DNA of 43,707 nucleotides from a virus. Below the pieces are notes generated by a model. The model did no database searches and was not told the origin of the DNA. It saw only the letters and a program-made list of their open reading frames with translations. Positions 15,487-43,707 of this stretch are shown piece by piece; the stretch's first letter is position 1; the number at the start of each line of letters is the position of its first letter. A program made the position numbers and the translations under genes. Location: the UHGV virus genome UHGV-0360526. One strand, given 5' to 3'.

Positions 15487-15489
15487 AAA

Positions 15490-15993
15490 ATGGGGGTAGC
15501 ATCTGGATGGGTCGGTTCTTCGGCCAAGAACGAAACGGGCGAACAATGGATGAGCGCTGCTGGTAGTAAATTAGGACTGGGTAGACCTTTTATGATGAGT
15601 CAAATGGTGGGAAGATCTATGGGCTGTAAAATTGCAACCGCTGCATATAGCGATTCTTTAGGTAAGAAATGGGGCGCGGTAGGACCAAGCTGGCCGTTAA
15701 ACCAGAAAAATCAGGGAACCATTCAAAACGCTGGTAACTGCGGGGTGGGAACTTTAGTAGGTATCGAGTTACAGTTAACGACGGTAGTTGCTAACGCAAA
15801 GCCTACTTTAGCGGTTTACTTACAAGGCGGCAGAACCTCTAACATTACCGTAAATTTAGGTGGCAACACCTGCGCGCTGACCTATCAGCAGGTTATTAAC
15901 GGACAGCATTATTACTGGACTAATAACATCAGCGCTGCGTTCCAAAACGTGATGAAATCAACAGGCGCACTACGTGATTTGAGAATTAGCTAA
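15490..15993 (+). CDS. hypothetical Gly-rich protein downstream of tail fibre (possible fibre accessory or adhesin)
   Basis: 167-aa ORF starting 4 nt after the fibre stop; Gly/Asn-rich; function inferred only from position. Confidence 0.4.
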   Translation: MGVASGWVGSSAKNETGEQWMSAAGSKLGLGRPFMMSQMVGRSMGCKIATAAYSDSLGKKWGAVGPSWPLNQKNQGTIQNAGNCGVGTLVGIELQLTTVVANAKPTLAVYLQGGRTSNITVNLGGNTCALTYQQVINGQHYYWTNNISAAFQNVMKSTGALRDLRIS

Positions 15994-16080: not shown

Positions 16081-18015
16081 ATGATGTTGGTGCGCGATAT
16101 TAAAGATTACACCGAACTAACAGCATACGCGTTAAATTCGTTGTTAACACTTGACAAACCAGAAATATTCGACGAATCCGTCACGATGACGGTAGACCAA
16201 GAAACGAACTATGATTACGTTGGTCAAGTTACTGGTCGTGTTTCTGTGGCTAGTCCCACTGAATATAAAATTGCGATGTATACCTATACAACGGGAGAGT
16301 ACGCGCAAGGTGAATCACCATTAAACGAATCAGGTGAGTTTAATTTTAAACGAACATGGCCGGGGACAAAACAATTTCGTTTAATTAGAATTGCTGATGG
16401 CAAATGGATTTCTACGTTAGAGTTCCCATTGTGCATACGTAGTTACCATATGCCAGAAAACGCGGACCCTGAAACGATCAGGATTATGAAAGATCGTTGT
16501 TATACTTACGATCAGGCTGTTGCTACTCTTGCATTAATGGCCTACGGTCATGAAAAGGTAGAACAGTTTGTAAAAGGTCTTTTAGCGCTGGTCAATGAAG
16601 ACGGTGGTGTTAAATTCTACGTAAACCGACTTTCGGCTAAATCTTCGCGAAATTATTACCGTATGGGCAACGTCGCGTGGGTACTTTACGCTTTAGCTTT
16701 TTATCTTGAAAAATTTCCTGCCGGAAATCTAGCGGCACAGGTTCATGAAAAATTAACACTTTCCTTAACCTGGCTGGAAACTTATAAGGTAACGCAGGAG
16801 ACAGATCGCCGCAAAGGTTTATATCTTGGTGGAAAGGGTCGTTTTGTTACTACCGAATCAGGCGAACGTGTTTTTGAAGAAGACTACGTTGCACCTTTTG
16901 CGGCTTTAGAACATCAGGTAGATATTTGGTTCCTGTTCGAATTACTAGGGCGCGTCGGTTTTGATGCATACCAACAAAAAGCAGCGGACTTCGGTAATAG
17001 AATAGTAGAAGCTTTTTGGATGGAAGACGAAGGACGTTTTCGTCAGGGTGTGAGAGAAACAGAAGATGATAACGCAGCTGCGTTAGATCAGTCCAGTTGG
17101 GGTGGGCTATTTGCGGCCAAATTTAAACCAGAGTACGCCGAACGTTGTCACGCTTTTATGGAGAAATTTCGTTCGGAAACCTCTGAGTGTCGTGGCTACA
17201 CACCATACAAAACCGAGTTTGGTTACCCTACTGCTAAAGAAGGGGTGTGGGTTGAAGGTGCCGCCGGTGTTGCGTTATTCGAACGTCAGTTAGGAAATGA
17301 TAAACGTGCTGTTGAGATCATTAACGACTTAGATGTTCTTTTATCAGAATACGGTTATCGTGATTCTTGCGATGATCCTACCTACGATACGCTGCCGCCG
17401 TGGTGGTCAACCACAAACACTGCATGGGTGCTTTTAGTCTGTAAGCCAAGTAATTTTTGGCTTGTAGATAAGCCTCCTTTAACGGAGAGATATAATCCGC
17501 AGAATAAATTTTTACCAGATATTTCATTAAACTCTTTAAATCTTGTAATTTCGTTAGTGAATCACGATTTAAAAACAGATTACACGGAGTCTGATGTTGA
17601 AATCAGCAAGATTTCACTTAGCACGGAAGAAAATCGTGACACAACAGCGATAATGGAAATAAAACGTCCTAATAAACGGTCGTTACAGATCTATTACAAC
17701 CGTTTAACCGCAGCGCGGTGGTTAAACCAGCAACCTATTCTGGTAAAGGTCACCGGTAACGGTTTTACTACACGCGATCTGATCGACGGAATTAACGCGG
17801 CTTGTGGTTGTAATTTACAACCCGACGATCTTACTGACGACACATTTACCGTAGGGAAAGACGCTGTAACGTTACAGGTTTCACCCAACTCGTTAGGTTA
17901 TAAAGGTCAATTCTCCGTTCTGGTTTTCGGTAACGATGAAGAAGCCGCTGTGGTAAAAGACAACGATTTAATCGTTACCGCAGATAACCGTGTCTTAACA
18001 TTCGGAGGTCACTAA
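16081..18015 (+). CDS. putative (alpha/alpha)6-barrel glycoside-hydrolase-like virion protein with C-terminal fibre-docking-like domain
   Basis: 644 aa; central region has repeated helix-pair signatures (YDQAVATLALMAYG, NVAWVLYALAFY, LDQSSWGGL, TNTAWVLLV) typical of six-hairpin glycosidases; C-terminus homologous to ORF 10121-10681; enzyme assignment is tentative. Confidence 0.35.
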   Translation: MMLVRDIKDYTELTAYALNSLLTLDKPEIFDESVTMTVDQETNYDYVGQVTGRVSVASPTEYKIAMYTYTTGEYAQGESPLNESGEFNFKRTWPGTKQFRLIRIADGKWISTLEFPLCIRSYHMPENADPETIRIMKDRCYTYDQAVATLALMAYGHEKVEQFVKGLLALVNEDGGVKFYVNRLSAKSSRNYYRMGNVAWVLYALAFYLEKFPAGNLAAQVHEKLTLSLTWLETYKVTQETDRRKGLYLGGKGRFVTTESGERVFEEDYVAPFAALEHQVDIWFLFELLGRVGFDAYQQKAADFGNRIVEAFWMEDEGRFRQGVRETEDDNAAALDQSSWGGLFAAKFKPEYAERCHAFMEKFRSETSECRGYTPYKTEFGYPTAKEGVWVEGAAGVALFERQLGNDKRAVEIINDLDVLLSEYGYRDSCDDPTYDTLPPWWSTTNTAWVLLVCKPSNFWLVDKPPLTERYNPQNKFLPDISLNSLNLVISLVNHDLKTDYTESDVEISKISLSTEENRDTTAIMEIKRPNKRSLQIYYNRLTAARWLNQQPILVKVTGNGFTTRDLIDGINAACGCNLQPDDLTDDTFTVGKDAVTLQVSPNSLGYKGQFSVLVFGNDEEAAVVKDNDLIVTADNRVLTFGGH

Positions 18016-26485: not shown

Positions 26486-27334
26486 ATGTCTCTTACGTCA
26501 AAACAGAAACTGCTAAAACTCATCAACACTGAAAACAATATTGTTCCGCCATTGACCTTCAGTGATGTTGATATCGGCGAACCTACTGGTACTGGGGTTG
26601 ATACCCAGGTGGTTCTGACTTCTAAACTCAAAGGCGATGAGTCTACTACTTTAACCGTGACTTACCATCGTCGTAATTTGCCCGAATACCTAACAGGTGA
26701 GTTGGTATTCGGTAACGACGGTGTTGTAACTGCTGCAGATTTGCTTAATGCGATCAACGCAAAATACGATTTAAATATTCTGCCGTCGGATATCATTGAT
26801 GCGAAAGTTGAAGGTGAAACCCATCAGCTTACCGCTAACGAGAAATCCTACGAATGGTGTGGCGAGGTGACACTCACGCTACGCGACCCTATTGATCTGG
26901 CTAAATTGTTACCTGTTACTCAATTAGAAAACCTGGTAGAGTATCCGTCCACTAAGAAAGGTAACGCAGCGGTTTATTCTTATCCAATTGACTTCACCGC
27001 AGAAAAAGATTACCTCGATCCGATTACCATTAACGACACCGTAGACTTAGTAGAGTTAGCCACTAAACTGACTAACGTCGTTGATGAGAAATGGGTAAGT
27101 GTACCTAAGAACACTGCTAATAACCTGTACGGTGCTAAGGTTATCTACGACGGCCCTACCGCAGGTTTCGAAGGTGCAAATACGAAGTACACGCGTGTGC
27201 TGGTACTCGCCCTAAGCGGTATGTGTTCTAACCTGACCGGTAAACTGTTAATTCACTTTAACGGAACCGATCGTCCGAAGTCGAAGATTGAATTAGCCAA
27301 GACTAATTCGGTCTTACCGGGATTCTTAGATTAA
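26486..27334 (+). CDS. hypothetical protein, member 1 of a four-gene paralog family
   Basis: 282 aa; N-terminal pattern (L..LI.......TF.DVD.G.P......T.VVLT) shared with ORFs 27348, 30488, 31098. Confidence 0.55.
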   Translation: MSLTSKQKLLKLINTENNIVPPLTFSDVDIGEPTGTGVDTQVVLTSKLKGDESTTLTVTYHRRNLPEYLTGELVFGNDGVVTAADLLNAINAKYDLNILPSDIIDAKVEGETHQLTANEKSYEWCGEVTLTLRDPIDLAKLLPVTQLENLVEYPSTKKGNAAVYSYPIDFTAEKDYLDPITINDTVDLVELATKLTNVVDEKWVSVPKNTANNLYGAKVIYDGPTAGFEGANTKYTRVLVLALSGMCSNLTGKLLIHFNGTDRPKSKIELAKTNSVLPGFLD

Positions 27335-30487: not shown

Positions 30488-31033
30488 ATGGCTAAAGCTT
30501 TCAATCTGCAGCTCATTGAAGCTGTTAAAGCTAAAAACCCTGAAACTGCTTCTAAACTGACCGTAAATGATGTCGATTTCGGGGCCGTAGAAGCTTACAC
30601 CCCGACCGGTAAAAGCGACGCCCGTAACACTAAAGTTGTCCTGACAGCGAAAGAAAGCAGCGCTAACTTCACCGGTAATAAAGAATTTCATTATATCCGT
30701 CTGGCTTCCGCTAACCTGATCGGTGCCAAAGCTTACCAGCAGGAAGGTAGCCTCGAACTGGAAAACGCTGCCATTGTAGCCAAACTGAACGAAGAGATGG
30801 TTACTAAAGGTTATGTAGATGACGCGTTTGCAGAAGGCGAACTCACTATTGAGAAAACTGACGGCGAAAGCGGTGCTAAAGTTTACACTGTCAAAGTAAA
30901 CGATGCGCACATCAAATTCTTAGCCGGTACCATTGCCACCTTCACCTATACCAACCCGGTTCCTCCGAAGACAGCTCTGAGCGGGCTGGAAGGTGAACTC
31001 GATGGTTTCACCGCACCGGGTATCGGGGGCTAA
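30488..31033 (+). CDS. hypothetical protein, member 3 of the paralog family
   Basis: 181 aa; RBS gaggt; C-terminal GELDGFTAPG shared with member 4. Confidence 0.6.
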   Translation: MAKAFNLQLIEAVKAKNPETASKLTVNDVDFGAVEAYTPTGKSDARNTKVVLTAKESSANFTGNKEFHYIRLASANLIGAKAYQQEGSLELENAAIVAKLNEEMVTKGYVDDAFAEGELTIEKTDGESGAKVYTVKVNDAHIKFLAGTIATFTYTNPVPPKTALSGLEGELDGFTAPGIGG

Positions 31034-31097: not shown

Positions 31098-31628
31098 ATG
31101 GCTGCTACTAACCAGATGATGTTGGTCGCGCTTTATAATGCTGCTAACACTGAGCTACCACATCAGGTTACTGATAAAGAAGTGTCCTTTGGTCTCCCTA
31201 CTGCGCTGGAAGGCGAAAGTAAGAATACCAAAGTTACCATGACTGCACTGCCAGGTTCTGAGAATTTCAAAGGCGCTATCGAACTGCATTACGATCGTCT
31301 GGAACCGGGAGTTGTAGGACGTATTGAACTAACTGACGATCTGTCTCGTTGGGAAGATCAAAACGAATTGCGCGCATGGTTACAATATTACATCAACAAA
31401 GTAAAACCTGACGATGCTATCGCACCAGCTGACGTTTCTTATTCTACCGAAGACCAGAAAGACGAACATGAAAACGTCACTCTGCGTACGGTAACGTGCA
31501 CCGTTACTGAAAAGAACCTCCGTTATAAACCGGGCGTAATGGCAACTTTCGTAATTACACCGAAAGTTGTTGATAATCGTATTGACCTGGCCACCACCAA
31601 CGGTGAGCTGGACGGTTTTACGTCCTAA
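31098..31628 (+). CDS. hypothetical protein, member 4 of the paralog family
   Basis: 176 aa; RBS aagga; C-terminal NGELDGFTS. Confidence 0.6.
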   Translation: MAATNQMMLVALYNAANTELPHQVTDKEVSFGLPTALEGESKNTKVTMTALPGSENFKGAIELHYDRLEPGVVGRIELTDDLSRWEDQNELRAWLQYYINKVKPDDAIAPADVSYSTEDQKDEHENVTLRTVTCTVTEKNLRYKPGVMATFVITPKVVDNRIDLATTNGELDGFTS

Positions 31629-32362: not shown

Positions 32363-32910
32363 TCATCGTCTCCTTTAATCAACCCTAATTCGATTAACAA
32401 TTCAAAATCGATATGACGGAATCTTGTGTCGAAGTCCGATTCCCAATCGATACGGATACCCTGGCATTCTTCTGGCGTTAGCTCAGGAAAAATCACGGTA
32501 TTAAATTTCTCTCGCTCATCGTAAAACCCATCAATCGGTGAGTTCGGGTTACGTGTTGCGAAGATAGTAATGCCGGGGAAGGACAATGCCAACACAGTGA
32601 TAGATTCTGCGCTGGGTTCGCTTAAAGAGCGGCGTAGAAACGCAATTTTGTGACGTGGGAAATCCAATACCCGTTCTTCAAACCCTGGGTTACGTTTTTC
32701 AATTTCCGCGACCGACAGGTCAGTAAGTTCGGTGCAGTACATTGGGATGATTACAGTCACGCCGTGACGAATCAGTAAGCGTTTTACGTCATCGGTAAAA
32801 TCTTCACCGTTAATCACCACATAACAACCGAATAGCTTACTGTTTTCCAGAAACTTATCCAGAAGTCGAATTCTACGCTTCGTAATATTGTTGATCAGAA
32901 TTGGTTTCAT
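32338..32910 (-). CDS. hypothetical protein
   Basis: 190-aa ORF; start overlaps the 3' end of the radical SAM gene. Confidence 0.5.
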   Translation of the reverse strand: MKPILINNITKRRIRLLDKFLENSKLFGCYVVINGEDFTDDVKRLLIRHGVTVIIPMYCTELTDLSVAEIEKRNPGFEERVLDFPRHKIAFLRRSLSEPSAESITVLALSFPGITIFATRNPNSPIDGFYDEREKFNTVIFPELTPEECQGIRIDWESDFDTRFRHIDFELLIELGLIKGDDECLLLVKA

Positions 32911-34195
32911 CTTTGGCTTCTCTTAATAATTTTTCCTTTTGGGCACGTTCACGAACACAGCGTGGGCAATAACACATGCTCGTGTCGTGGAACGCTTTTG
33001 CTGACGTCGTACCCATCTTCTGTTTCCAGTATTCCGCCACCATCAGTTTCGCTGTCGTCCAGCCACACTGACGACGTTCAGCGTGATACGCTTTACGGTC
33101 TTCTAACGTTCCTTCCCCGTTCTCGTAAGAAGCCGCCGCACAGCTACCACAAGCGTGTTTCATCGGACAACCTAAACAGGTCTCTGGGTAGTTGGTATAT
33201 TGCGTTTGAATCTCTTCTAACAATTTACCGTTGTCCAGACTGACGAATTCCCGACCTACCAACTCAAACACCGCAGAACGCGACGTTACCGTTGACATAA
33301 AGCGGTTACAGCCAAAGATCTTACGGTCAAATCCTAAGCACGTCATGTGGGTTAACGTCCCGCAGAACGGACGTAAACGTTCTGGGTTCAACCGTACAGT
33401 GTCATTATACAGTAACTGGTCACGCCAGTTCGGTTCCCAAATCGTATCGAAATCCAACCCTTCTGGAATGATGTGCGATAAGATATTACGTGGATTGGTG
33501 TGTAATCCTTTTTCAACCCAATAATCTATCACATCCATCATCTGTAAAGCGATTGATGTCGCCATGCTACGCGGCATAACGTCTTCGAAGGTTACGTTCC
33601 CAGAAATTGTCCCACCGCCAGTAATGTCAATTAATGACTTCATCCCCGCAGCATAGAACGGCAGTGTTTCTAACGTAAAGGTCGCTTTTACGCCGAGTTC
33701 TGCAATACCAACCTCTTTTAAGTAATTATAGCCACGTACTGCGGCTTCGTAAGAACCCTGACGCGTCGTTGTGAAGATACGATAGCGGTCATGGGATTCA
33801 GGTAAACCATCAATCGAAACCCCAACCGAAAGTTTGTCTTTCCAACGTTCTACAATCTCACGGTTCAACGGACGATCTAACAGCGTTCCGTTCGTGGAGA
33901 TACTAAACATAAACGGTCGGTTGTGTTCTTTACACAACTGCTCAGCGGTTTCAAACGCAGCCAGCAGCAGTTTAGGCTGCATGAACGGTTCACCACCGAT
34001 AATGTCGATAATAACTTCGACATTCGGTTCGTTTTTATCACGTTCAAAACAGGCGTGTAAGAAATCAACAATGTCAGCCGCTTTGTTGTTACGTGGGTAC
34101 TTACGTTCGTAGCAATATTCGCAGTCCAGGTTACACGAAAGGTTGGTTACGATCTGATACGTTAACTGCTTAGGGAATTCATTTACTTGACTCAT
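32873..34195 (-). CDS. radical SAM enzyme with C-terminal SPASM-like domain (peptide-maturase-like)
   Basis: 440 aa; CNLDCEYC (CxxxCxxC) near N-terminus, GGEP SAM-binding motif, C-terminal Cys clusters CGTLTHMTCLGFDRKIFGCNRF and CLGCPMKHACGSCAAAS. Confidence 0.8.
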   Translation of the reverse strand: MSQVNEFPKQLTYQIVTNLSCNLDCEYCYERKYPRNNKAADIVDFLHACFERDKNEPNVEVIIDIIGGEPFMQPKLLLAAFETAEQLCKEHNRPFMFSISTNGTLLDRPLNREIVERWKDKLSVGVSIDGLPESHDRYRIFTTTRQGSYEAAVRGYNYLKEVGIAELGVKATFTLETLPFYAAGMKSLIDITGGGTISGNVTFEDVMPRSMATSIALQMMDVIDYWVEKGLHTNPRNILSHIIPEGLDFDTIWEPNWRDQLLYNDTVRLNPERLRPFCGTLTHMTCLGFDRKIFGCNRFMSTVTSRSAVFELVGREFVSLDNGKLLEEIQTQYTNYPETCLGCPMKHACGSCAAASYENGEGTLEDRKAYHAERRQCGWTTAKLMVAEYWKQKMGTTSAKAFHDTSMCYCPRCVRERAQKEKLLREAKDETNSDQQYYEA

Positions 34196-35102
34196 TTGCC
34201 GCCCCTCTATTACGTCCTGCCATCACTACGCGACGAATATATTCGTACGCCTCTACACCGATAGAGAAGGCCAGTTGGTTACATCCCGATTCCAGAACGT
34301 TAGGTGCATTCTGGAGTTGGTGCTCACCACCGTCTGCATTAATCCAAAGACTTTCGCTGCAAACGTTACACCCTTCTTCAAACACTTTACTTACTGTAAA
34401 GCCGCATTCACGACCATTTACTACATTCAGTCGTTCAATGTTGTCCTGAACCTGATAGTAGCCGTAAATAAAGTTCATGACGTGGTCAGGCGATAAAGGT
34501 TTTGGCATTTTCGCGTCTAAGAGTAACGTCATTGCACGGAAACCGTAATGGTAAATCGCGCTGTGCAGCTGAATAATATCTTCGTGCCAGCGTTTGTCCC
34601 CTAAACGGTCCCGTGTCAGGACACCCCAAGTCTGGACATTATCCAGCTCGTAGATCGTTTCCAGTGCTTCGTAACAGCCTTCGTCAATAAAGCGCATAAA
34701 CGGGCGCTCAGACGACTTAAACCCATCGATGCTAACGTAGACATTGTCAAACTGTTTTAGCAACGGGAGATGCGATTTACGCATCTTTAAGCCATTGGTA
34801 TACAACTGGTGTTTGAGTTCTGGACGAATCACTTTTAATTCGTCAACAAACGCCTCAATTTTACGGGTTGCCAGTAATGGCTCACCACCCGTCCACTGAA
34901 TTTCGGTAATGGTTGGATTAGCTTCCAGCGCTTCCAAAATTCGCTCACGTTGAAACTCTCGCGGAGAATCTTCACGATTCATGTAATAGGCTCCACCGCA
35001 GAAGCTACAATCCAGGTTACACTTGGACGTAGCGACTACGGACAATACGGTGGGTTTATCGTATAAACGATTCGATAACCTTGGTTCTGCATTGGTTGTC
35101 AT
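34179..35102 (-). CDS. radical SAM enzyme (second, shorter paralog-like)
   Basis: 307 aa; CNLDCSFC (CxxxCxxC), GGEPLL motif, C-terminal Cys residues ECG..GCNVCSES..GCNQ; 17-nt overlap with downstream rSAM gene. Confidence 0.75.
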   Translation of the reverse strand: MTTNAEPRLSNRLYDKPTVLSVVATSKCNLDCSFCGGAYYMNREDSPREFQRERILEALEANPTITEIQWTGGEPLLATRKIEAFVDELKVIRPELKHQLYTNGLKMRKSHLPLLKQFDNVYVSIDGFKSSERPFMRFIDEGCYEALETIYELDNVQTWGVLTRDRLGDKRWHEDIIQLHSAIYHYGFRAMTLLLDAKMPKPLSPDHVMNFIYGYYQVQDNIERLNVVNGRECGFTVSKVFEEGCNVCSESLWINADGGEHQLQNAPNVLESGCNQLAFSIGVEAYEYIRRVVMAGRNRGAANESSK

Positions 35103-35123
35103 TGCAGGTGACTCCGGTCGTTT

Positions 35124-36023
35124 TTAAATATAATCAATGGCGAACAAAGGATCGTCGTCTACGTTAGCACCAGGGGTTAACAAGAATGGAGAGTTATACG
35201 CTTCCAAAATACGATTAAGGTCTTTATAACGGACATTTAAACGTTCTAAATCCGCTAACGTTACGTTACGGTCCAACACCGCCGACACTGCTGCTTTCTC
35301 TTCGTCAGTTAACGTGACTTTCGTCATTAAGAAACTAACGAGTTTTGCCAGATCCGCTTCTGTTGACGGATGCTCGCCAATACGTGTTTGAATCAAATGC
35401 TGCATCCAAGGCTTACGGATGCGTTTTGTGATTTCGTGTTCATCCGTCAGGGCAACCCACACGGAACGTTCACGGTCCCACACGAACTTATAGCTGTACG
35501 CCATTAAATCCGCTAAGCAATTAATCCCTAACGCTTCGTACCCTTCAATTTCGATATACGATTCCGTATCGAAATAGTTCTTCGTTTCTGGTGTTACCAG
35601 AGTAAAGAAATACGGGAACGAGCCTAAGTAATCTGGCGACCACCAACGACGGGCAACCGGTTTTGCACCCATTTCTTCAAATGGGGTAAAGAACAATTCC
35701 ATATCTACGGAGTTATTCAAAATCCCGTCACTAAAGAAATATTTACCCGCAACCAGTTTACCACGCAACTCGGAGTCACCGGTAAAAACCACTACACTTT
35801 CTGCCGTCAGATCACGAATCTTAAACGTATTTTCTACACGATAGTTTTTACGATCGGTAAAGAAACGTCCGCGCACTTTAGGCCATTCGCCCGGCAACTG
35901 TGTCAGCAGACGAACTTCATCTGCTAAATGTGCACGTACGGAATCAGGGGAAGAAATGTGAAGTGGATGATTGAAAATTGTTTTGTACGCTAAATGTAAA
36001 TCATTCTTCATCGATTGCTCCAA
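35124..36023 (-). CDS. hypothetical protein between Cys-rich peptide genes and radical SAM genes
   Basis: 299-aa ORF with RBS ggag; no recognisable motif. Confidence 0.5.
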   Translation of the reverse strand: MEQSMKNDLHLAYKTIFNHPLHISSPDSVRAHLADEVRLLTQLPGEWPKVRGRFFTDRKNYRVENTFKIRDLTAESVVVFTGDSELRGKLVAGKYFFSDGILNNSVDMELFFTPFEEMGAKPVARRWWSPDYLGSFPYFFTLVTPETKNYFDTESYIEIEGYEALGINCLADLMAYSYKFVWDRERSVWVALTDEHEITKRIRKPWMQHLIQTRIGEHPSTEADLAKLVSFLMTKVTLTDEEKAAVSAVLDRNVTLADLERLNVRYKDLNRILEAYNSPFLLTPGANVDDDPLFAIDYI

Positions 36024-36160
36024 TTATTTCGCGGTCAAACGGACATTCAGGGTATAGAAACCACCGCACCATTACCTACCGGTAACTTGAAACTCAGTAG
36101 TAAACCCGTACGATTAACTCGGTTATTGCGTAATAGACATACTACCACTGGAGGGCTTAG

Positions 36161-36367
36161 TTACCTTCCCCCCGCACCTTTACTACAGCTACCACTGCAC
36201 GACCAGCTACATCCGCCGTTACAGTTATAATGGCTTAAAGGTAAACCGGCAAGGTTATTGGTTGAAGACACGGTGCCCTGGTTTGCAATATAGTTGTTTG
36301 CGTTAGCGGTCGTAATATACCCTTCCGCTGTTACTAACCGATCACGAAGGTTCTTAAGGCTAATCAC
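36161..36367 (-). CDS. CxxxC-repeat Cys-rich peptide 3 (short core)
   Basis: Listed ORF 36161-36433 overlaps peptide 2 out of frame; GTG at 36367 preceded by gggagg gives VISLKNLRDRL..., matching the leaders of peptides 1 and 2; core CNGGCSWSCSGSCSKGAGGR. Confidence 0.5.
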   Translation of the reverse strand: MISLKNLRDRLVTAEGYITTANANNYIANQGTVSSTNNLAGLPLSHYNCNGGCSWSCSGSCSKGAGGR

Positions 36368-36369
36368 AA

Positions 36370-36768
36370 TTACCTCCCAGAACAGCCACCGGAGCAAGCA
36401 CCAGAGCAGCCTGCAGAACAGTTTCCTACACACGAGTTAGAACAACTCCCCGTACAGCTTCCTGAACAGCCACCAGAACAGGTATTCGAACATCCACTAC
36501 AGCCTGCACTACAACCTGATACACAGTTTGCAGAACAGGAAGAACCACAGCCGCCTGATGCGTTCCCTGTACAACCACCAGAACAGCTCGAACAGGTCCA
36601 GCTACAGCTCCCACCACAGTCATAGTGGTTGCGAGCTTGCCCACCGAATAAGTCTGCGTTGTTCGTCGCTTTCCCACGAATATAGTTTTGTACTGCACCC
36701 GTATTCTTCAATGCAGTGTTGTCAATGTTATTTAGCCGCGCTTGTAGCGCAGGTAATCCAATTGCCAT
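36370..36768 (-). CDS. CxxxC-repeat Cys-rich peptide 2 (putative radical SAM substrate)
   Basis: 132 aa; ~50-aa leader MAIGLPALQARL... then ~80-aa core of about 20 Cys, mostly in C-x-x-x register with Ser/Gly between. Confidence 0.6.
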   Translation of the reverse strand: MAIGLPALQARLNNIDNTALKNTGAVQNYIRGKATNNADLFGGQARNHYDCGGSCSWTCSSCSGGCTGNASGGCGSSCSANCVSGCSAGCSGCSNTCSGGCSGSCTGSCSNSCVGNCSAGCSGACSGGCSGR

Positions 36769-36778
36769 TTTTCACCTC

Positions 36779-37177
36779 TTAGGTTGGGCCAGAACAGCCA
36801 CCGGAGCAAGCACCAGAACAACCCGTAGAACAACGGCCCGAGCAAGCACCTCCACAGGTCCCACTGCAACCTGAGCAGCCGCCGGAACACGTTGAACTAC
36901 ATCCAGTACACTGGTTACCACACGCGGATGAACAGCTACCTACACACACCGACGTACAGGTGCCCGAACAACTCGTACAGCCATGCGTACAACCGTTTGA
37001 GCACGTCCAGCTACAGCTTCCCCCGCAGTCTAACCGACTTGGCGTCCAACCCGAAAAAGTGTCGGCGGCATTATGTGCTTTCGACGCAACTTGCGGATCA
37101 ACACGTGGGCCAGTTGCCATTTGGTTCTCTACGTTGGTGATTCGGTCACGTACATTTTTAACACTGATCGCCATCAC
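36779..37177 (-). CDS. CxxxC-repeat Cys-rich peptide 1 (putative radical SAM substrate)
   Basis: 132 aa; leader MMAISVKNVRDRI...SRLDCGG then core with 21 Cys (CSWTCSNGCTHGC...CSGACSGGCSG); RBS aagga; ATG at 37174 also possible. Confidence 0.6.
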   Translation of the reverse strand: MMAISVKNVRDRITNVENQMATGPRVDPQVASKAHNAADTFSGWTPSRLDCGGSCSWTCSNGCTHGCTSCSGTCTSVCVGSCSSACGNQCTGCSSTCSGGCSGCSGTCGGACSGRCSTGCSGACSGGCSGPT

Positions 37178-37241: not shown

Positions 37242-38441
37242 TTATTTCGTACCCGCTTCTGCCTGAACGTCATCACGGGACGTCAAGTTAGCGTTAACGT
37301 GCACTGGAGCCTGAACCACACCGCCGTATTTCTTGTGGAGATAACCTGTGTGCGGGTTATCCGCCGCAATATGGTTTTGTAGGTTCTGATTCGCCTGACT
37401 GATTGCGTTCGTGTTATTCGCAACCTGTTGTTTAAGCGCATCCAGGTTTTGTTGCAGATTATCAATTTTCTGATCGGACTCATTACCCCGTTGTTCTAAC
37501 GCAGCAATGCGCTGAATCGCTTGGTTGAGTTTGGTGTTCAGATCGTTGATATTTTTCTGTAACTGTAACACTAGCGAATTTAGGTTCGCCAATGCCAATG
37601 CCATCTTCTGGTAGTTTTGGGCAACGATGTTAAGTTGGTCGTTCCACGCTTCCAAAGATTTGACAACAGCATCAATACGTTTTCCTAACGCTTCGTCTGC
37701 TTTCTTCAACGCATTAATATCAGTAATGGTTGCATCGATGGCAGATTGTACGTCACGGATAAGTGCACGGATCTCCGTTTCTGTTAACCCGTTAACCTGA
37801 TGAATATCCAGATGGTGGACATTACCCGTGGCGTTAATGTGCGCGTTCAGCGCGTCCAGGAAATCGTTTTTCAGGCTTTCGAGAATCGCTTTGATGTTCT
37901 CAAGCTGTACAGCATCACCCGCCGTTATCGCATCTTTGATGCCAGCGAGCACTGTAATGATATATTCGAAGCCGTAAATATCGCCGACGTCTTTATACGT
38001 TGGTGCCGAAGGAAACGTGTCCGGCACATTTCGCAAGTCTTTAAAGCCAACAGTTCGATTATCGAGATTCAGCTCGGCAATCGCCTGTTCTATCGCGGGC
38101 ACGTTTGCCGACTGCGGACCCCCGACTACTTGCGCTGATACCGTGATATCGGTCGGAATCGCGGTGTTCGTTACAACAACCGCCATTACCACTTCCCGGT
38201 TCTTCGTCAATTTCTCGTAAGCCGGGTGTGCAAAAATCAACTCGTAGTCCGTTCCGCGCTCATACGTCGCGTCGGGTCGATTGGCAACCCGCAAGCGGAA
38301 CGTATCAGCATAAAACGGTCCGTCAGGAAAAGCAAACGCACGGTTAACTTTACCTGTACCTAACGTAATCTGACGCTCCACGGCGTTAGAGGTTAGGCTT
38401 CCCGTTAAATCTAAAGGGTATTGGTATACAATGGAGGCCAT
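37242..38441 (-). CDS. tail-fibre-like protein (N-terminal attachment domain plus long coiled coil)
   Basis: Listed ORF to 38549; ATG at 38441 with RBS aaggagag gives MASIVYQYPLDL; N-terminus shares the P-x-G-P-F-Y motif region with the 1727-aa protein; C-terminal half is heptad-rich. Confidence 0.6.
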   Translation of the reverse strand: MASIVYQYPLDLTGSLTSNAVERQITLGTGKVNRAFAFPDGPFYADTFRLRVANRPDATYERGTDYELIFAHPAYEKLTKNREVVMAVVVTNTAIPTDITVSAQVVGGPQSANVPAIEQAIAELNLDNRTVGFKDLRNVPDTFPSAPTYKDVGDIYGFEYIITVLAGIKDAITAGDAVQLENIKAILESLKNDFLDALNAHINATGNVHHLDIHQVNGLTETEIRALIRDVQSAIDATITDINALKKADEALGKRIDAVVKSLEAWNDQLNIVAQNYQKMALALANLNSLVLQLQKNINDLNTKLNQAIQRIAALEQRGNESDQKIDNLQQNLDALKQQVANNTNAISQANQNLQNHIAADNPHTGYLHKKYGGVVQAPVHVNANLTSRDDVQAEAGTK

Positions 38442-38481
38442 GGCCACTCTCCTTAATCCGAGACGTCCTTGTCTCGTGGCG

Positions 38482-41400
38482 TTAAGATGTAAACATAAGA
38501 TTGAACTGGAGCTTATCGATATCGCGGGTTTGTGCTGGGTTAACCGCATCGTACGTGGTTGCCACGTAGACCGTTAATGTCCCGTCAGCAAACGAGGTTT
38601 TCACCGGTGGCGTAGTCCCTGTTTGTCCGTCGGTTACAATGACGACAGGTTGAGCCGGGAGTTGATGGAACTGACCCTTAACCGCTTTATACACCAAACC
38701 AGATTGTGCTGCTAACTCCGTGTCGGTATACACGATAAACGGTGTGTCGATATCTGTCTGTTTAATGACAGTGTTCGACTCAACGTCAATCAACTGAACA
38801 GCACCGAACTTCGTACGGTAGCTATCGTATTCATTTTTTGGAATGACAAACGTAGCATGTATACGGACTTCTTCGGCTGGCTTAAATCCGGCGTGTTCTT
38901 TTTCCAGATAACTGTTAGCGGTTAACGTTACTGTCTGTTCAGCCATCGTACCGCCAGACTGGTTTAACCCGTAACGAACTTGGGTTATACCTGTCGGAGC
39001 CGCAAGCCTGATTTTTAGTCTACGATTAGCGGTGCCGGGATTACCAGGCACTTTAACACGCAGACTCAGCGCCAGATATGCATTCGCACCGGTAGTCGGT
39101 TTCGTATACGCGCCCAACCACTTCATGTTCGCAGTTGCCGCTTGACTGTTCTCAGAAGCAGTAGCCGCAGCAACGTTTGCAGCAACCGCTTTCTGCCAGA
39201 ACTGGTCAGCGCAGTTTTCATACGCTACTCTACCGATACTTTTATAACCTGCGTAGGTTTCCTGTATCGGTAGCTTGGGTCGTGTTGTAACCCCGTTCAA
39301 CGCATTCCATTTCTGACCATCGACATACCCCGCACCATTACTCGCAGATGCCGTAGGGGCTTTCAGTGGTTGGTTAACTAAGGTTTGAAGTGGACCCGTT
39401 TTTCGATCGTACGCCGCTGCAACGTCGTGCTGATCTCTAACGGCAGCATGTTCTTCTAATTCACGAACCCTGCCTAGTCGTTTCACTTTATCGATGTTGA
39501 TAGCAACTATGCGCTTTTTATCGGTTGTAACTGTACCAACAAATAATCGCGAAGTCGTATCCGGCAGCTTTTCCAGACCGATCTGATATTGAGCCTTCGA
39601 ACCTACAAGAGCAGCATGAACATAGAACGTCTGGTTAGCATGGTTTTCTGGGAATTCGTTGCTTAAATCCACCGACCACGTCGGTAATGTATAGCTATTA
39701 CTACCGAAATCTAACCTGACCTCTTCCGTCAAGTATAGAATCCAACCTTCCGCGGTTTCCACGCCTGCGATAATAACTGCCTGCCCCGCTGTTGAGAATG
39801 TGGTATCATTAACGAACTCTTCGACTGTGTATGCGTTACCTGAACAGAAAACGCGGTCAGCTTTAGAGAAAATTCGTGCCATCTTGTCCCAATTACCCGC
39901 ACCCATGTAACAACCAGATTCTGGGTTGTGGGCAGGAGCCATCTGACGCAACTGTGACTTACCGGGAACTCGCGTCCAACCCGACCCAGGGTTAAAGGTA
40001 TACTTCGCAGCGTAACCCAAAGCATTTAGGTCCCCGATATTCCGTATTGTCAGCGTATAAGGTAGCCATAGACCGAAGTTTACACCGTCGGCAGAAGCAA
40101 AAATTGGCTGGCCTACACGTCGCGTTTTATTACCCGCTTCTTCCCTCAGAGACTGATAACTTAAGCCGTAATCAAGGTCTAAGAACCAATCTACCAGCTT
40201 AAAGGTTGCAGAATTAAAACGTAGATAACCGTTTTCTTTAGTCGGACTCACCATGAAGTAATAGATGTCGAGGACTCGACGTCCGTTACTCAAGGTTTTC
40301 ATGCATGAGACTTGTAATAAGTCGAACTCACAAACAGTGTTAATGCCTAGCAACCAGAGTGCAAACAACGCGTTGCCGCTTTGGTGTGCTGCGCTGATGC
40401 GCTCGTTCGCGTAACCGTTTGCTTGGCCAGATGGTGCACCATCGACAATCATCCTAATCATTTTCTGGCGATCCGCTTCCTCTAACGTCAGCCGTTCTGA
40501 TGACAGGGCAAAGTTACCGTAGATGTTCCGATATGGAAAGGTTTCCGCTTTCGTCAAATACCAACCATTTAACTGACCGTGACGCTCCTCAGGAGTCATA
40601 CATGCAGCCATACAGCTTAACTGTTCGTAAAGGGTTGCATCAACTTCTCGACGGTTGTTGTTCGGGCCATAACCGCTATATCCGGGAACGTCATAAGGTT
40701 TACTTGGGTCAACTTCTACTTCGATCGTATAGCGGTTGCGCGGATTGGATAACCATACTTTGTTTGAGCCACCGATACCAACAGGATGAGAAAGACCGAT
40801 GGTATAGATAGAACCACGACCTTTATCCCAAGTAAATGTTGCTTCGCCTGAGGTATTGTTTGGGTTATCATAACGCAGATAATCAAAAAACTCTTTGCCT
40901 TGCGTACTTTTAATAGTAACATTCGGCATCTGGTCCGCATCGTTAATCTGCCAGCAGGAAAGCATCATTCCTGAGACATTAGGTTTAGCATACGTCGCAA
41001 AACAACGATTGTTTGCTTGGCCGCCACCCCACTTACGACTGGTTTCTACAGTTGAGCCATCCGCGTACGATAGTCTGGTAGCATCAACCTTAATGGGGAA
41101 ACGTTCGGCACCCTCTAACGTAACTCTGCCCGTTAACGTATCGATTGTGAAACTTGTTGACCATTGACGGAAATTAATCGTCGTACCGTCGGCAGCCGCA
41201 AACCACACGCTGGGTACATGGTTCACACGAATCACGCTGTCGCGTACCGCACAAGCATGGTTACATTCTGGACCGTGAACAAAGTTGTGACCGATTGTCC
41301 ATTTAGCCCGTGCCTCTGGCGGGTAATACGTAAAGAACTGACCAGTCTGCGACTCTTCGGTCTTCTGGCCAATTCTTAGGCAGAGGTTATCTCCGAATTG

Positions 41401-43665
41401 CCCCATTTCTCCGGTTAGGGTTACACGTTCAAATTCTAACTCAGTATTGGTAGTCAAATCGGCTTTACGTAAACGCCATACCGCCACAGCATAAGCAGAG
41501 TTATTTACCGTGGAACGAAGAAGATAAACGTGGTCGTCAACTAACACAACATCGTCGGCTTCTGGCCAAGGATTCCAGGTTTGTTCCACAGTACCGCTGG
41601 GGTTGCCATTACGGTACTTAGGCATTGTAACACGACATACCACCGTGTGTTTACTGTGGTCCATCGAACCATTGAACAACACCAAATAACGGTTATTGTC
41701 AGAACCCAGACAAATAATCGCTTCCTGGCCACCGATCAATATCGCTTTTAAGGTCACCCCAGGGTATTTACTCATCCCAACAGGATGGTATTTCACCGAA
41801 GTTTGCTGAGGGTTCACAAACACATTCGACGTATTGATATCAGCATAGCCGTAGTAAATCGCCTCTGTACCAGGTACGCCATTAGAAGCATTACGTAACG
41901 AATAAACTTTACCTTGTTGATATCCTACAACACCTTTCTGATAGGACTGGTTCTTTGTAAAACCTGAATAATTACCGAGCGCCGGAATGGGTAAGAAGTT
42001 TTTGTTACCGAACTTCGCCCCACCGACAGTCCACGCAGGTAAGATGGTATTCAGTTTATCAGAAACTTTCTTGATCTCTTTTGCGAACAACCACCCTTGA
42101 CGCGAAGTGACAGCTTTATCGTTCGTGGTATCAATCGCATCCCACAACTGTAAGATACCATCCACAGTCGCACTGCCAATCGGGACATTATCCAAATCGG
42201 CGGTAGTGTGCGTGTGCTCCTTCACACTTTTATTTTTCAGCACATTCGCTAACGCTTTTGTTACCGGTTTAGCGATCGGCATGGTGTTTTCCATCTTATC
42301 GATACCGAAATCGGTTTTCGTTAAGGTTAACACCATTTTATCGCCTGTCTTAACAAACCCTTTACCGTTAACCGTGTAGTCATCGTCAACGTACAAGTCT
42401 AACCGGTCTTTTAATTCGGTCACCGCCTTTTGGGAAATAGCAGTGCCTAGTGCTACGGAGGTTGCGATATTCGTAATCGAAAACACCCCATAAACCGACT
42501 CGGTTGCTGTGGGAATATTCGCGTTCAACGTTAGCGGATTAGACTGCTTCGCTGTACCGTACGGTTTTACGGTGTCTGATGGTTTGAAATAGGCGTTCGC
42601 TTCAAGTAACGTTACAGACGTCAGGTACATGTTCACCATTTCTGGTGTAACCAAATACACAGAGTTGTAAACCGGCGCTAATACATCTTGTTCTGTCCCA
42701 GAGTGTACCCAAAGCGTATTCAGCCCCGCACTAAATTCAACCGCCAAACCCGATTCGTTGTTGTCCTGGTCTGCTTTAATCACCAACGGTTGCGGTGAGG
42801 TAATTAACCACTTATCACCACGGATACTGATGATGTGTCCGCCTGCGGTTTTAAACGTCAGTTCGTTACCGTTCGTGCTGCCCCATCGACCGTAAACAGT
42901 GCCGAGGGCTTCACCCATTAACTGATCAACGTCTGATTGCTCAATACCCGCCGAACCCATCAGCGTAGCCAATTCGTCAATCGTCAGTCCAAACGCTTTT
43001 GTAGCGTCGACAGCACGTCCCAAAACCGGAAGGGCACCAACATCAGTGGTCGTATACTGGTGTGCGTTAGGATTAAGGTGGTGTTGGTATAACTCCTCGT
43101 CGAAAACCTTTTTACCGTTCTCGTAAATCAGGTTAGTGACTTCGGTAAACGCTGCATCTAACTCTGTTGAACGTTGAACGATTTTCTTACGGATGTCGTT
43201 TAACGCTTTAACAACCTCATCCCTCAGAATAGCTTCTTCTAAGTTAGCAGGAGGATCGATGGGTTGAATAACTGGCGCATACGCCATTAACTCTGACCAG
43301 TCCACGTTACGTGGGTCTTTCAGGTCAGTACGAACTAAGAACTTTCCGATTTCAGATTGTGGTACACGATACTGGCGTGCTACCCCTAAAATCTCATATT
43401 CGATTTCTGTTGCGGTCAGCAACATGAACCCGCCATAAATCTGATCTTGTTCAGCTTCTGCGAGTTCTTTAAAGTAATAGCCTAAATAGTAGTCCAACCC
43501 CTCAATCAGAGTACGACGTCCGTTAGGCGCGGTATCGTCGGCTACTGTGAGTTTTAATCCGATACGATAAAAAGGTCCTTCAGGCGGAATGACCACATTA
43601 AATCGGTTAGGGTACGTCGCTGTGCTTAACGTACCGTTAAACTGCGCCGCGTCTTCTCTCGGCAT
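38482..43665 (-). CDS. giant virion protein (1727 aa), putative tailspike / receptor-binding protein
   Basis: Single uninterrupted ORF; N-terminal region (NRFNVVIPPEGPFYRIGLKLTV) homologous to N-terminus of the adjacent fibre-like protein; RBS aggagt; remainder unassigned. Confidence 0.6.
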   Translation of the reverse strand: MPREDAAQFNGTLSTATYPNRFNVVIPPEGPFYRIGLKLTVADDTAPNGRRTLIEGLDYYLGYYFKELAEAEQDQIYGGFMLLTATEIEYEILGVARQYRVPQSEIGKFLVRTDLKDPRNVDWSELMAYAPVIQPIDPPANLEEAILRDEVVKALNDIRKKIVQRSTELDAAFTEVTNLIYENGKKVFDEELYQHHLNPNAHQYTTTDVGALPVLGRAVDATKAFGLTIDELATLMGSAGIEQSDVDQLMGEALGTVYGRWGSTNGNELTFKTAGGHIISIRGDKWLITSPQPLVIKADQDNNESGLAVEFSAGLNTLWVHSGTEQDVLAPVYNSVYLVTPEMVNMYLTSVTLLEANAYFKPSDTVKPYGTAKQSNPLTLNANIPTATESVYGVFSITNIATSVALGTAISQKAVTELKDRLDLYVDDDYTVNGKGFVKTGDKMVLTLTKTDFGIDKMENTMPIAKPVTKALANVLKNKSVKEHTHTTADLDNVPIGSATVDGILQLWDAIDTTNDKAVTSRQGWLFAKEIKKVSDKLNTILPAWTVGGAKFGNKNFLPIPALGNYSGFTKNQSYQKGVVGYQQGKVYSLRNASNGVPGTEAIYYGYADINTSNVFVNPQQTSVKYHPVGMSKYPGVTLKAILIGGQEAIICLGSDNNRYLVLFNGSMDHSKHTVVCRVTMPKYRNGNPSGTVEQTWNPWPEADDVVLVDDHVYLLRSTVNNSAYAVAVWRLRKADLTTNTELEFERVTLTGEMGQFGDNLCLRIGQKTEESQTGQFFTYYPPEARAKWTIGHNFVHGPECNHACAVRDSVIRVNHVPSVWFAAADGTTINFRQWSTSFTIDTLTGRVTLEGAERFPIKVDATRLSYADGSTVETSRKWGGGQANNRCFATYAKPNVSGMMLSCWQINDADQMPNVTIKSTQGKEFFDYLRYDNPNNTSGEATFTWDKGRGSIYTIGLSHPVGIGGSNKVWLSNPRNRYTIEVEVDPSKPYDVPGYSGYGPNNNRREVDATLYEQLSCMAACMTPEERHGQLNGWYLTKAETFPYRNIYGNFALSSERLTLEEADRQKMIRMIVDGAPSGQANGYANERISAAHQSGNALFALWLLGINTVCEFDLLQVSCMKTLSNGRRVLDIYYFMVSPTKENGYLRFNSATFKLVDWFLDLDYGLSYQSLREEAGNKTRRVGQPIFASADGVNFGLWLPYTLTIRNIGDLNALGYAAKYTFNPGSGWTRVPGKSQLRQMAPAHNPESGCYMGAGNWDKMARIFSKADRVFCSGNAYTVEEFVNDTTFSTAGQAVIIAGVETAEGWILYLTEEVRLDFGSNSYTLPTWSVDLSNEFPENHANQTFYVHAALVGSKAQYQIGLEKLPDTTSRLFVGTVTTDKKRIVAINIDKVKRLGRVRELEEHAAVRDQHDVAAAYDRKTGPLQTLVNQPLKAPTASASNGAGYVDGQKWNALNGVTTRPKLPIQETYAGYKSIGRVAYENCADQFWQKAVAANVAAATASENSQAATANMKWLGAYTKPTTGANAYLALSLRVKVPGNPGTANRRLKIRLAAPTGITQVRYGLNQSGGTMAEQTVTLTANSYLEKEHAGFKPAEEVRIHATFVIPKNEYDSYRTKFGAVQLIDVESNTVIKQTDIDTPFIVYTDTELAAQSGLVYKAVKGQFHQLPAQPVVIVTDGQTGTTPPVKTSFADGTLTVYVATTYDAVNPAQTRDIDKLQFNLMFTS

Positions 43666-43707
43666 CGTAAAGACTCCTACTTTTAAATAAAATGGATACC
43701 CCTCCCC

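Follow-up and report, generated by a model that had tools for sequence, protein, structure and literature searches.

Host recognition by nucleus-forming jumbo phages is still an open question, and their tail fibres are unmodelled in the cryo-electron microscopy (cryo-EM) of phiKZ and of Goslar, whose authors report that the fibres could not be modelled (Goslar preprint, Basu et al. 2026). The closest described system is the fibre base of phiKZ. According to the phiKZ cryo-EM atlas (Xiao et al. 2026; PMC13250141), 12 fibres dock beneath gp130 at the outer baseplate, and each docking site contains six N-terminal domains of the gp131-like type together with a six-helix bundle; the atlas authors read the composition of a site as three copies of gp131 plus gp133, gp134 and gp135, with the gp131 propeller lying distally, and distinguish, within each star lobe, two types of docking site that are nearly identical. 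Immunogold labelling and cryo-EM place the phiKZ family at the baseplate periphery, and transposon sequencing recovered no insertions in any of gp131-135 (PMC12676376). Similarly, gp168 (188 kDa), gp169 and gp170 of SPN3US form “paralog family C,” which comprises phiKZ gp131-like baseplate or tail-fibre candidates; all three were found in virions by mass spectrometry and are missing from a mutant without tails; gp168 is associated with the tail and treated as essential, and gp167 (44.8 kDa) was also detected in virions (PMC5694885, PMC5105663). Here, we compare with these systems two adjacent genes at one end of a 43,707-nucleotide (nt) stretch of UHGV virus genome UHGV-0360526, referred to below as the window. 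One encodes a protein of 1727 amino acids (aa), which we call the giant, and the other a coiled-coil protein of 399 aa. We consider it probable that both are peripheral baseplate fibre subunits that dock and assemble together, with the giant serving host interaction and the 399-aa protein acting as a conserved structural partner.

On sequence grounds, we assign the window to an SPN3US/Asesino-like jumbo phage (SPN3US/phiKZ type). It represents a lineage distinct from SPN3US, and the only matches of a nucleotide search, to Erwinia jumbo phages, reach ~70-74% across stretches of a few hundred bases. The giant is the ortholog of SPN3US gp168 (RefSeq ACQ60_gp098) and Asesino gp188, with tblastn identities of 49% and 56%, respectively, over 100% of its length and a full-length match to phrog_7449. 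The 399-aa protein is the ortholog of SPN3US gp167 (“virion structural protein 20,” ACQ60_gp099) and Asesino gp187, to which it is 77-78% identical. The SPN3US gp167/gp168 pair agrees with the window pair in protein lengths, gene order, strand and neighbouring genes, which downstream include the Cys-rich open reading frames (ORFs) and two radical SAM genes. Several Salmonella phage records (SPFM and SPAsTU phages) label the giant orthologs “YomR,” and for the 399-aa protein one ortholog is recorded as “Chromosome partition protein Smc”; such names seem to have been assigned automatically on the basis of fibre repeats and coiled-coil composition.

The two ORFs are adjacent, as the first-pass annotation had reported, and lie on the minus strand, the smaller one with a corrected start. 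The giant gene occupies 38482..43665; an AGGAG lies 9 nt before its ATG, and upstream of the gene 42 nt (43666-43707) remain to the window end. For the small gene, the mechanical ORF is 435 aa long from 38549. We place the real start at 38441, giving a gene at 37242..38441, because 60+ homologs all begin with MASIV or MAEII and an AAGGAG lies 8 nt upstream of this ATG. A 40-nt gap separates the giant stop from the start of the small gene. Within this gap, between the giant stop codon and the ribosome-binding site of the small gene, an inverted repeat CGAGAC…GTCTCG (6-bp stem, 6-nt loop; 38459-38476, minus strand) is present, with no trailing T-run.

The two proteins have a common N-terminal domain of ~135-165 residues, encoded at 43261..43665 in the giant (residues 1-135; hhalign and hidden Markov model (HMM) matches) and at 38037..38441 in the 399-aa protein (residues 1-135; AlphaFold2, hhalign and HMM cross-matches). 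In the 399-aa protein it is modelled as a beta-sandwich, with strands at residues 21-106 and a predicted local distance difference test score (pLDDT) of ~80-87. Were pairwise comparison the sole guide, one could attribute the resemblance to chance similarity of two beta-rich sequences, since BLASTP of the two N-termini is marginal (22/77 identities, E 0.038). Profile statistics make that explanation extremely unlikely, and we rejected it. An hhalign comparison of 25 homologs of the 399-aa protein with 28 giant homologs gave a probability of 95.5% and an E-value of 1.6e-8, aligning residues 39-175 of the former with 27-164 of the latter. Both proteins match phrog_2163 (the 399-aa protein with E 1e-102, the giant over residues 15-578 with E 2e-42), and the joint alignment of the two families is colinear over ~170 residues. 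Reciprocal HMM matches also run via phiKZ gp131-135 and SPN3US gp169 and gp170.

Searches confined to the window and its relatives agree with this result. Among the 252 six-frame ORFs of the window, an HMM of the first 170 residues of the giant family matched one other ORF only, that of the 399-aa protein (E 2.4e-4), and a broad HMM built from 157 N-domains matched giant residues 1-135 with E 2.3e-40. The plus-strand fibre genes of the window lack the shared domain in the N-domain HMM searches. A tblastn search with giant residues 1-175 returned orthologs only, at one place per genome, and the paralogy is therefore invisible to single-sequence search. Positions common to both families include P-x-GPF(Y/F), (R/E)G-x-DY-x-L, VGG and R-x-V-(D)-(W/F)-x-x-L, and even distant members of the giant family open with the fibre-like motif YPYDPxG…N. 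The shared N-terminal region had been proposed in the first-pass annotation, and the profile evidence bears it out; the specific motif given there fits only with a one-residue gap.

This module is found far beyond the two genes. Against 1.8 billion cluster representatives, the N-domain profile yielded 3246 matches at E <= 1e-3, 2452 of them at E <= 1e-10. In the best 150 of the 3246 matches the first matched residue falls between 1 and 16, so that the domain is always N-terminal there, and the 134 newly found carriers among these 150 range from 166 to 1911 aa (median 562). Such N-terminal placement across otherwise different proteins is, as judged from sequence, the signature of a modular anchor.

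The HMM search further identifies this module with the “gp131-like N-terminal domain” of phiKZ. The family HMM of the 399-aa protein matched phiKZ gp135 (2.8e-35), gp134 (2e-28), gp131 (4e-20) and gp133 (2.4e-15), as well as SPN3US gp169 (8e-12), which makes gp135 and gp134 its nearest phiKZ relatives. The giant-family HMM matched SPN3US gp169 (8e-41) and gp170 (8e-32) and phiKZ gp131 (7e-9), and its N-domain portion alone matched phiKZ gp131 (7.6e-13) and gp133 (3.4e-8). These homologies assign both genes to the phiKZ gp131-133-134-135 / SPN3US gp167-170 paralog family. Published descriptions of SPN3US paralog family C cover gp168-170 only; the membership of the gp167 type, implicit in phrog_2163, is shown here through its N-domain. 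The shared domain is real, but the family and its anchoring role had already been described.

The first-pass annotation had also suggested, as uncertain, a resemblance to the N-terminal domains of podophage fibres, and this did not survive comparison. T7 gp17 likewise has a tail-anchoring N-terminal fibre domain, with which a short NR-F-P…DY motif can be aligned, without statistical support. Neither protein matched the T7 gp17 N-terminal domain of Pfam (PF03906) at E <= 0.1. Three hhalign tests against the T7 gp17 N-domain, one of them using the 157-sequence N-domain profile, gave probabilities of 0.3%, 4% and 0.6% (E 0.01-0.2). A Foldseek search of the 399-aa model against the Protein Data Bank (PDB) returned no significant match, the top one being T7 gp17 itself (E 0.09, template modelling score 0.36). 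The T7 gp17 lead (PDB 7BOZ, 7EY9) was rejected as unsupported after the three hhalign tests.

The resemblance to phiKZ extends to the organization of the locus. Both systems combine a homologous N-domain (HMM E 1e-8 to 1e-35), a His-rich motif after it, four tandem paralogs beside a divergent gp130 homolog, and one paralog with a propeller-type distal module, which in phiKZ is the C-terminal seven-bladed propeller of gp131 (Sycheva et al. 2012). The giant of the window is not itself on record, and we read the array from a metagenomic relative, L005, whose giant is 91% identical. In L005 the array encodes proteins of 1440, 1400, 1727 and 399 aa; therefore, the window, which holds two of the four array genes, cuts off two further paralogs. 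Beyond the point corresponding to the window end, L005 carries the N-domain paralogs of 1400 and 1440 aa and then a divergent 420-aa homolog of phiKZ gp130 (BLASTP E 1e-12). SPN3US and Asesino share this gene order, with a divergent neighbour at the gp130 position. In SPN3US, Asesino, L005 and phiKZ alike, the tandem carriers found by the 157-N-domain HMM number exactly four, and the loci examined gave no match outside these arrays.

The systems also differ. phiKZ has one 771-aa and three ~460-aa paralogs, whereas the set in this lineage comprises one 399-aa protein and three larger ones spanning 1237-1727 aa (1400-1727 aa in L005). No sequence similarity to the gp131 C-terminal propeller is detectable in the giant, and neither the long coiled coil of the 399-aa protein nor the extra domains of the giant have been described for phiKZ.

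Two arrangements could explain how proteins sharing one anchor but differing in their distal parts are used. By analogy with the phiKZ atlas, the N-domains would dock under the gp130 homolog at 12 outer-baseplate sites, each site comprising six N-domains and a six-helix bundle, and the paralogs would be co-assembled partners rather than interchangeable alternatives. Alternatively, along the lines suggested by the first-pass annotation, the proteins would form independent, mutually alternative homotrimeric fibres or spikes that use the N-domain to occupy equivalent sites and confer multi-specific adsorption. The common docking module of that proposal stands, and the distal parts of the proteins are indeed very different and variable; phiKZ docking sites come in two nearly identical types in each star lobe, and the same N-domain is joined to hundreds of different C-terminal architectures. 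However, each phiKZ site is interpreted as being made up of several paralogs, transposon insertions on a single host are missing from all of gp131-135, distant lineages keep the same count of four paralogs, and gp168, gp169 and gp170 are similarly abundant in SPN3US virions, near the level of the portal. We thus regard mutually alternative fibres as rather unlikely. Co-assembly of the four tandem paralogs would fit better, because phiKZ sites hold six N-domains from several paralogs, gp131-135 are without insertions and the paralog number is fixed at four.

Within a co-assembled fibre, the giant would be the host-interaction subunit, built from a conserved shaft followed by a propeller cassette and a C-terminal beta domain. 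After the N-domain, a putative helical segment (residues ~140-190; 43096..43248, minus strand, as are all segments of both proteins) is a candidate contributor to the six-helix bundle; hhalign aligns its residues 141-164 with helix 152-174 of the 399-aa protein, and the bundle role is suggested by analogy with the phiKZ map. The conserved shaft (residues 191-545; 42031..43095), delimited by HMM and PHROG matches, contains His-rich and HTHT fibre motifs and shows 46-94% identity among orthologs. It is shared with SPN3US gp169 and gp170 (HMM positions 31-500 align with gp169 residues 39-516, E 1e-40; gp170 E 7e-13), and tail-fibre PHROGs 2126 and 35419 match residues 399-516.

Beyond the shaft, AlphaFold2, fold searches and region-wise identity delimit a beta-propeller-type region (residues 546-1280; 39826..42030) that is an exchangeable cassette. 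It is followed by a conserved beta domain (residues 1281-1400; 39466..39825) that matches phrog_3573, phrog_7557 and phrog_26864, has an ortholog identity of 36-84%, and is common to SPN3US gp170 (HMM positions 1286-1403 on gp170 residues 775-891, E 9e-18). A predicted disordered linker (residues 1401-1464; 39274..39465), with pLDDT <50 at model residues 860-925, leads to a hypervariable C-terminal beta domain (residues 1465-1727; 38485..39273), a candidate distal or receptor-contacting module defined by AlphaFold2 and identity values. The AlphaFold2 model of residues 540-1727 (pLDDT 84.7, predicted template modelling score 0.67) is all-beta to ~1399, disordered across 1399-1464, and then confident again in the C-terminal beta domain.

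Conservation among orthologs follows this architecture, being high over residues 1-680, ~30% over 680-1280, high again over 1280-1440 and lowest over 1440-1727. The least conserved stretch of the giant is the C-terminal domain, at 12-35% outside the closest relatives, and in a tblastn search of isolated phages with this domain the only matches were gp168 orthologs from a small number of Erwinia phages (21-32% identity). Compared with SPN3US gp168, both the propeller cassette and the C-terminal domain differ, and the C-terminal domain type of the window was not found in SPN3US. A relative designated P0071 is 94-97% identical to the window giant up to ~540, ~31% across 546-1280 and 64-78% thereafter, and these breakpoints coincide with the predicted domain borders. 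Such a profile marks the giant as a mosaic in which the propeller region has been swapped as a cassette between near-identical relatives. The propeller cassette and the C-terminal domain vary independently of each other, and close relatives have exchanged both; the combination of conserved shaft, swapped propeller and hypervariable C-terminus follows, at the level of sequence, the pattern of a host-range protein. Of the two proteins, only the giant looks like a host-recognition protein.

Fold searches with the whole giant model returned beta-propellers only (Foldseek E 1e-6 to 1e-3), and this raises the question of whether the giant might mainly be a virion-borne enzyme, such as a glycan depolymerase or a sialidase-like protein acting through its propeller, rather than a passive receptor binder. 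The identities behind these matches are 5-13%; Pfam, NCBIfam and PDB sequence searches give the propeller no match, and no family-level sequence match to glycoside hydrolase or sialidase propeller enzymes and no catalytic residues or motif were identified in the giant. We consider a mainly enzymatic role fairly unlikely, and it would be compatible with a host-interaction subunit, not exclusive of it. Structure prediction, which the first-pass annotation had proposed with beta-helix and hydrolase domains in mind, thus delivered a propeller-type, all-beta model but no hydrolase family. A non-virion enzyme, the outcome which that annotation had set against its virion-protein reading, was rejected, given that the SPN3US orthologs of both proteins were found in virions, gp168 in association with the tail.

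The 399-aa protein would be the coiled-coil structural subunit of the same fibre, with a tip that contacts a phage protein. Its AlphaFold2 model (pLDDT 70 overall) comprises a beta domain at 20-110, helices within 152-204 and a single helix at 222-360, and no globular distal domain. Residues 136-221 (37779..38036) contain two helices (152-174 and 178-204) and the His-rich motif NAHINATGNVHHLDIHQ, which occurs three times in phiKZ gp131; H202, N208 and H210 are invariant among homologs. The uninterrupted coiled coil of ~139 residues (222-360; 37362..37778; pLDDT 80-92) keeps one continuous heptad phase with 79% hydrophobic a/d positions. The protein ends in a highly conserved tip defined by alignment (residues 361-399; 37245..37361), with the sequence …HxxYLHKxYGGVVQAxVHVNANLTxRDDVQAEAGT.

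A receptor-binding role for the 399-aa protein, as assumed in the first-pass annotation, would be in keeping with a virion protein that has a trimeric-fibre-like coiled coil; profile searches match the coiled coils of reovirus sigma-1 and P22 gp26, although these matches are compositional, and one database record calls the protein a “viral fiber protein.” The pattern of conservation points the other way. Among the SPN3US-, Erwinia- and Salmonella-phage orthologs, the last 39 residues are the best-conserved segment (77-92%) and the coiled coil the least conserved (48-71%), and conservation of the tip spans phages of Salmonella, Escherichia, Proteus and Erwinia. Moreover, the protein remains 74-78% identical in phages whose giant is only 42-56% identical. 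We therefore judge it improbable that the 399-aa protein is itself a receptor-binding fibre; it looks structural because its C-terminal tip is its most conserved part, and the partner of the invariant tip is most likely a further phage protein rather than a variable receptor.

Several points weigh against docked, co-assembled fibre subunits with this division of labour. The phiKZ fibre-base hexamer was fitted at ~6 Å with AlphaFold models, without an atomic model, and the atlas authors call it a candidate composition (PMC13250141). Localisation data come only from orthologs that are 49-78% identical to the window proteins, and relatives are the sole source for the other two paralogs and the gp130 homolog, which fall past the window end. 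The giant model covers residues 540-1727; its propeller matches are generic at their 5-13% identity and provide no family assignment. Pfam and NCBIfam contain no match for the giant propeller, nor any domain in either protein beyond coiled-coil matches. The giant-family HMM meets gp131 in the N-domain only, and the gp131 C-terminal propeller is absent from the listed fold matches of the giant model. PDB sequence searches with single sequences and family profiles of both proteins returned only coiled-coil noise. Finally, the SPN3US spectral counts per unit mass (gp167 1.90, gp169 1.41, gp168 1.08 and gp170 1.00, compared with 0.93 for the portal, present in 12 copies, and 0.74 for gp171, the putative gp130 homolog) are semi-quantitative and do not fix the stoichiometry.

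As a tentative and more specific proposal, which we advance as a possibility rather than an expectation, the SPN3US-type fibre base could be a hetero-hexamer of three 399-aa proteins plus one each of the three large paralogs, at 12 sites. This 3+1+1+1 composition is compatible with the phiKZ model, the four-paralog count, the shaft common to gp168-170 and the spectral-count ratios; none of these proves it. If true, one fibre would carry three different, independently swappable heads on a common ~500-residue shaft, and would amount to a built-in multi-specific, heterotrimeric receptor-binding fibre.

What this analysis adds to the described family is a sequence-level domain map of its largest fibre paralog and a case for the small coiled-coil paralog as structural rather than receptor-binding. 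The sharp module boundaries at ~545 and 1280-1300 are sites at which cassettes have been exchanged in nature, and, together with the domain map, they are of practical use for engineering the host range of SPN3US-type therapeutic phages and for interpreting fibre densities.

The window contains several further fibre-type genes, all on the plus strand. The first-pass annotation had counted at least four or five receptor-binding candidates in the window; the additional fibre-type genes are indeed present, and the 399-aa protein is not receptor-binding-like. A mosaic side-tail-fibre protein of 1532 aa and, after it, a gp38-like adhesin of 167 aa are encoded at 10888-15993, as recognized from domains and relatives. 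The 1532-aa fibre combines a Phage_fiber_2 repeat with a Gp34 trimerisation domain and, at its C-terminus, an S74 chaperone domain. Its closest relatives, at 37-65% identity in pieces, come from among the fibres of E. coli and Salmonella phages (P1 S, SSU5, JL22) and not from those of SPN3US-type jumbo phages. Because the best relatives are E. coli and Salmonella phage fibres, sequence comparison suggests horizontal acquisition of this gene and an enterobacterial host.

Domain matches also identify four proteins with DUF7941 (PF25613), encoded at 16081-18015, 26486-27334, 30488-31033 and 31098-31628. DUF7941 is the chimallivirus baseplate “filament cloud” module described in the Goslar preprint (Basu et al. 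2026). In the 644-aa protein of the window it is C-terminal (residues 482-620), behind a tail-fibre region. These proteins belong to another modular host-recognition family of the same phages that is anchored at the baseplate; the DUF7941 domain is unrelated to the gp131-like N-domain and is absent from both the giant and the 399-aa protein.

Directly downstream of the 399-aa gene, at 32873-37177 on the minus strand, lies a cassette that, from its sequence, looks like a substrate-plus-maturase system of the ribosomally synthesized and post-translationally modified peptide (RiPP) type. Two 132-aa Cys-rich paralogs (phrog_6085; 36779-37177 and 36370-36768), whose C-terminal halves consist of CxxxC / CSGxC repeats, are followed by a probable third short Cys-rich copy within 36161-36433, a 299-aa protein (35124-36023) and two radical SAM proteins (34179-35102 and 32873-34195). 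Of these two, the one of 440 aa has matches to TIGR04115 (“radical SAM peptide maturase, CXXX-repeat target family”; E 6.5e-33) and to PapB ranthipeptide maturases, in both cases below the curated cut-offs, and one Cys-rich protein scores 19.4 bits against the TIGR04114 CXXX repeat, for which the cut-off is 20. A literature search on a radical SAM / Cys-rich cassette in jumbo phages found no paper, and in SPN3US virions the counterparts, gp163-166, went undetected. The cassette is conserved in SPN3US, Asesino and metagenomic relatives.

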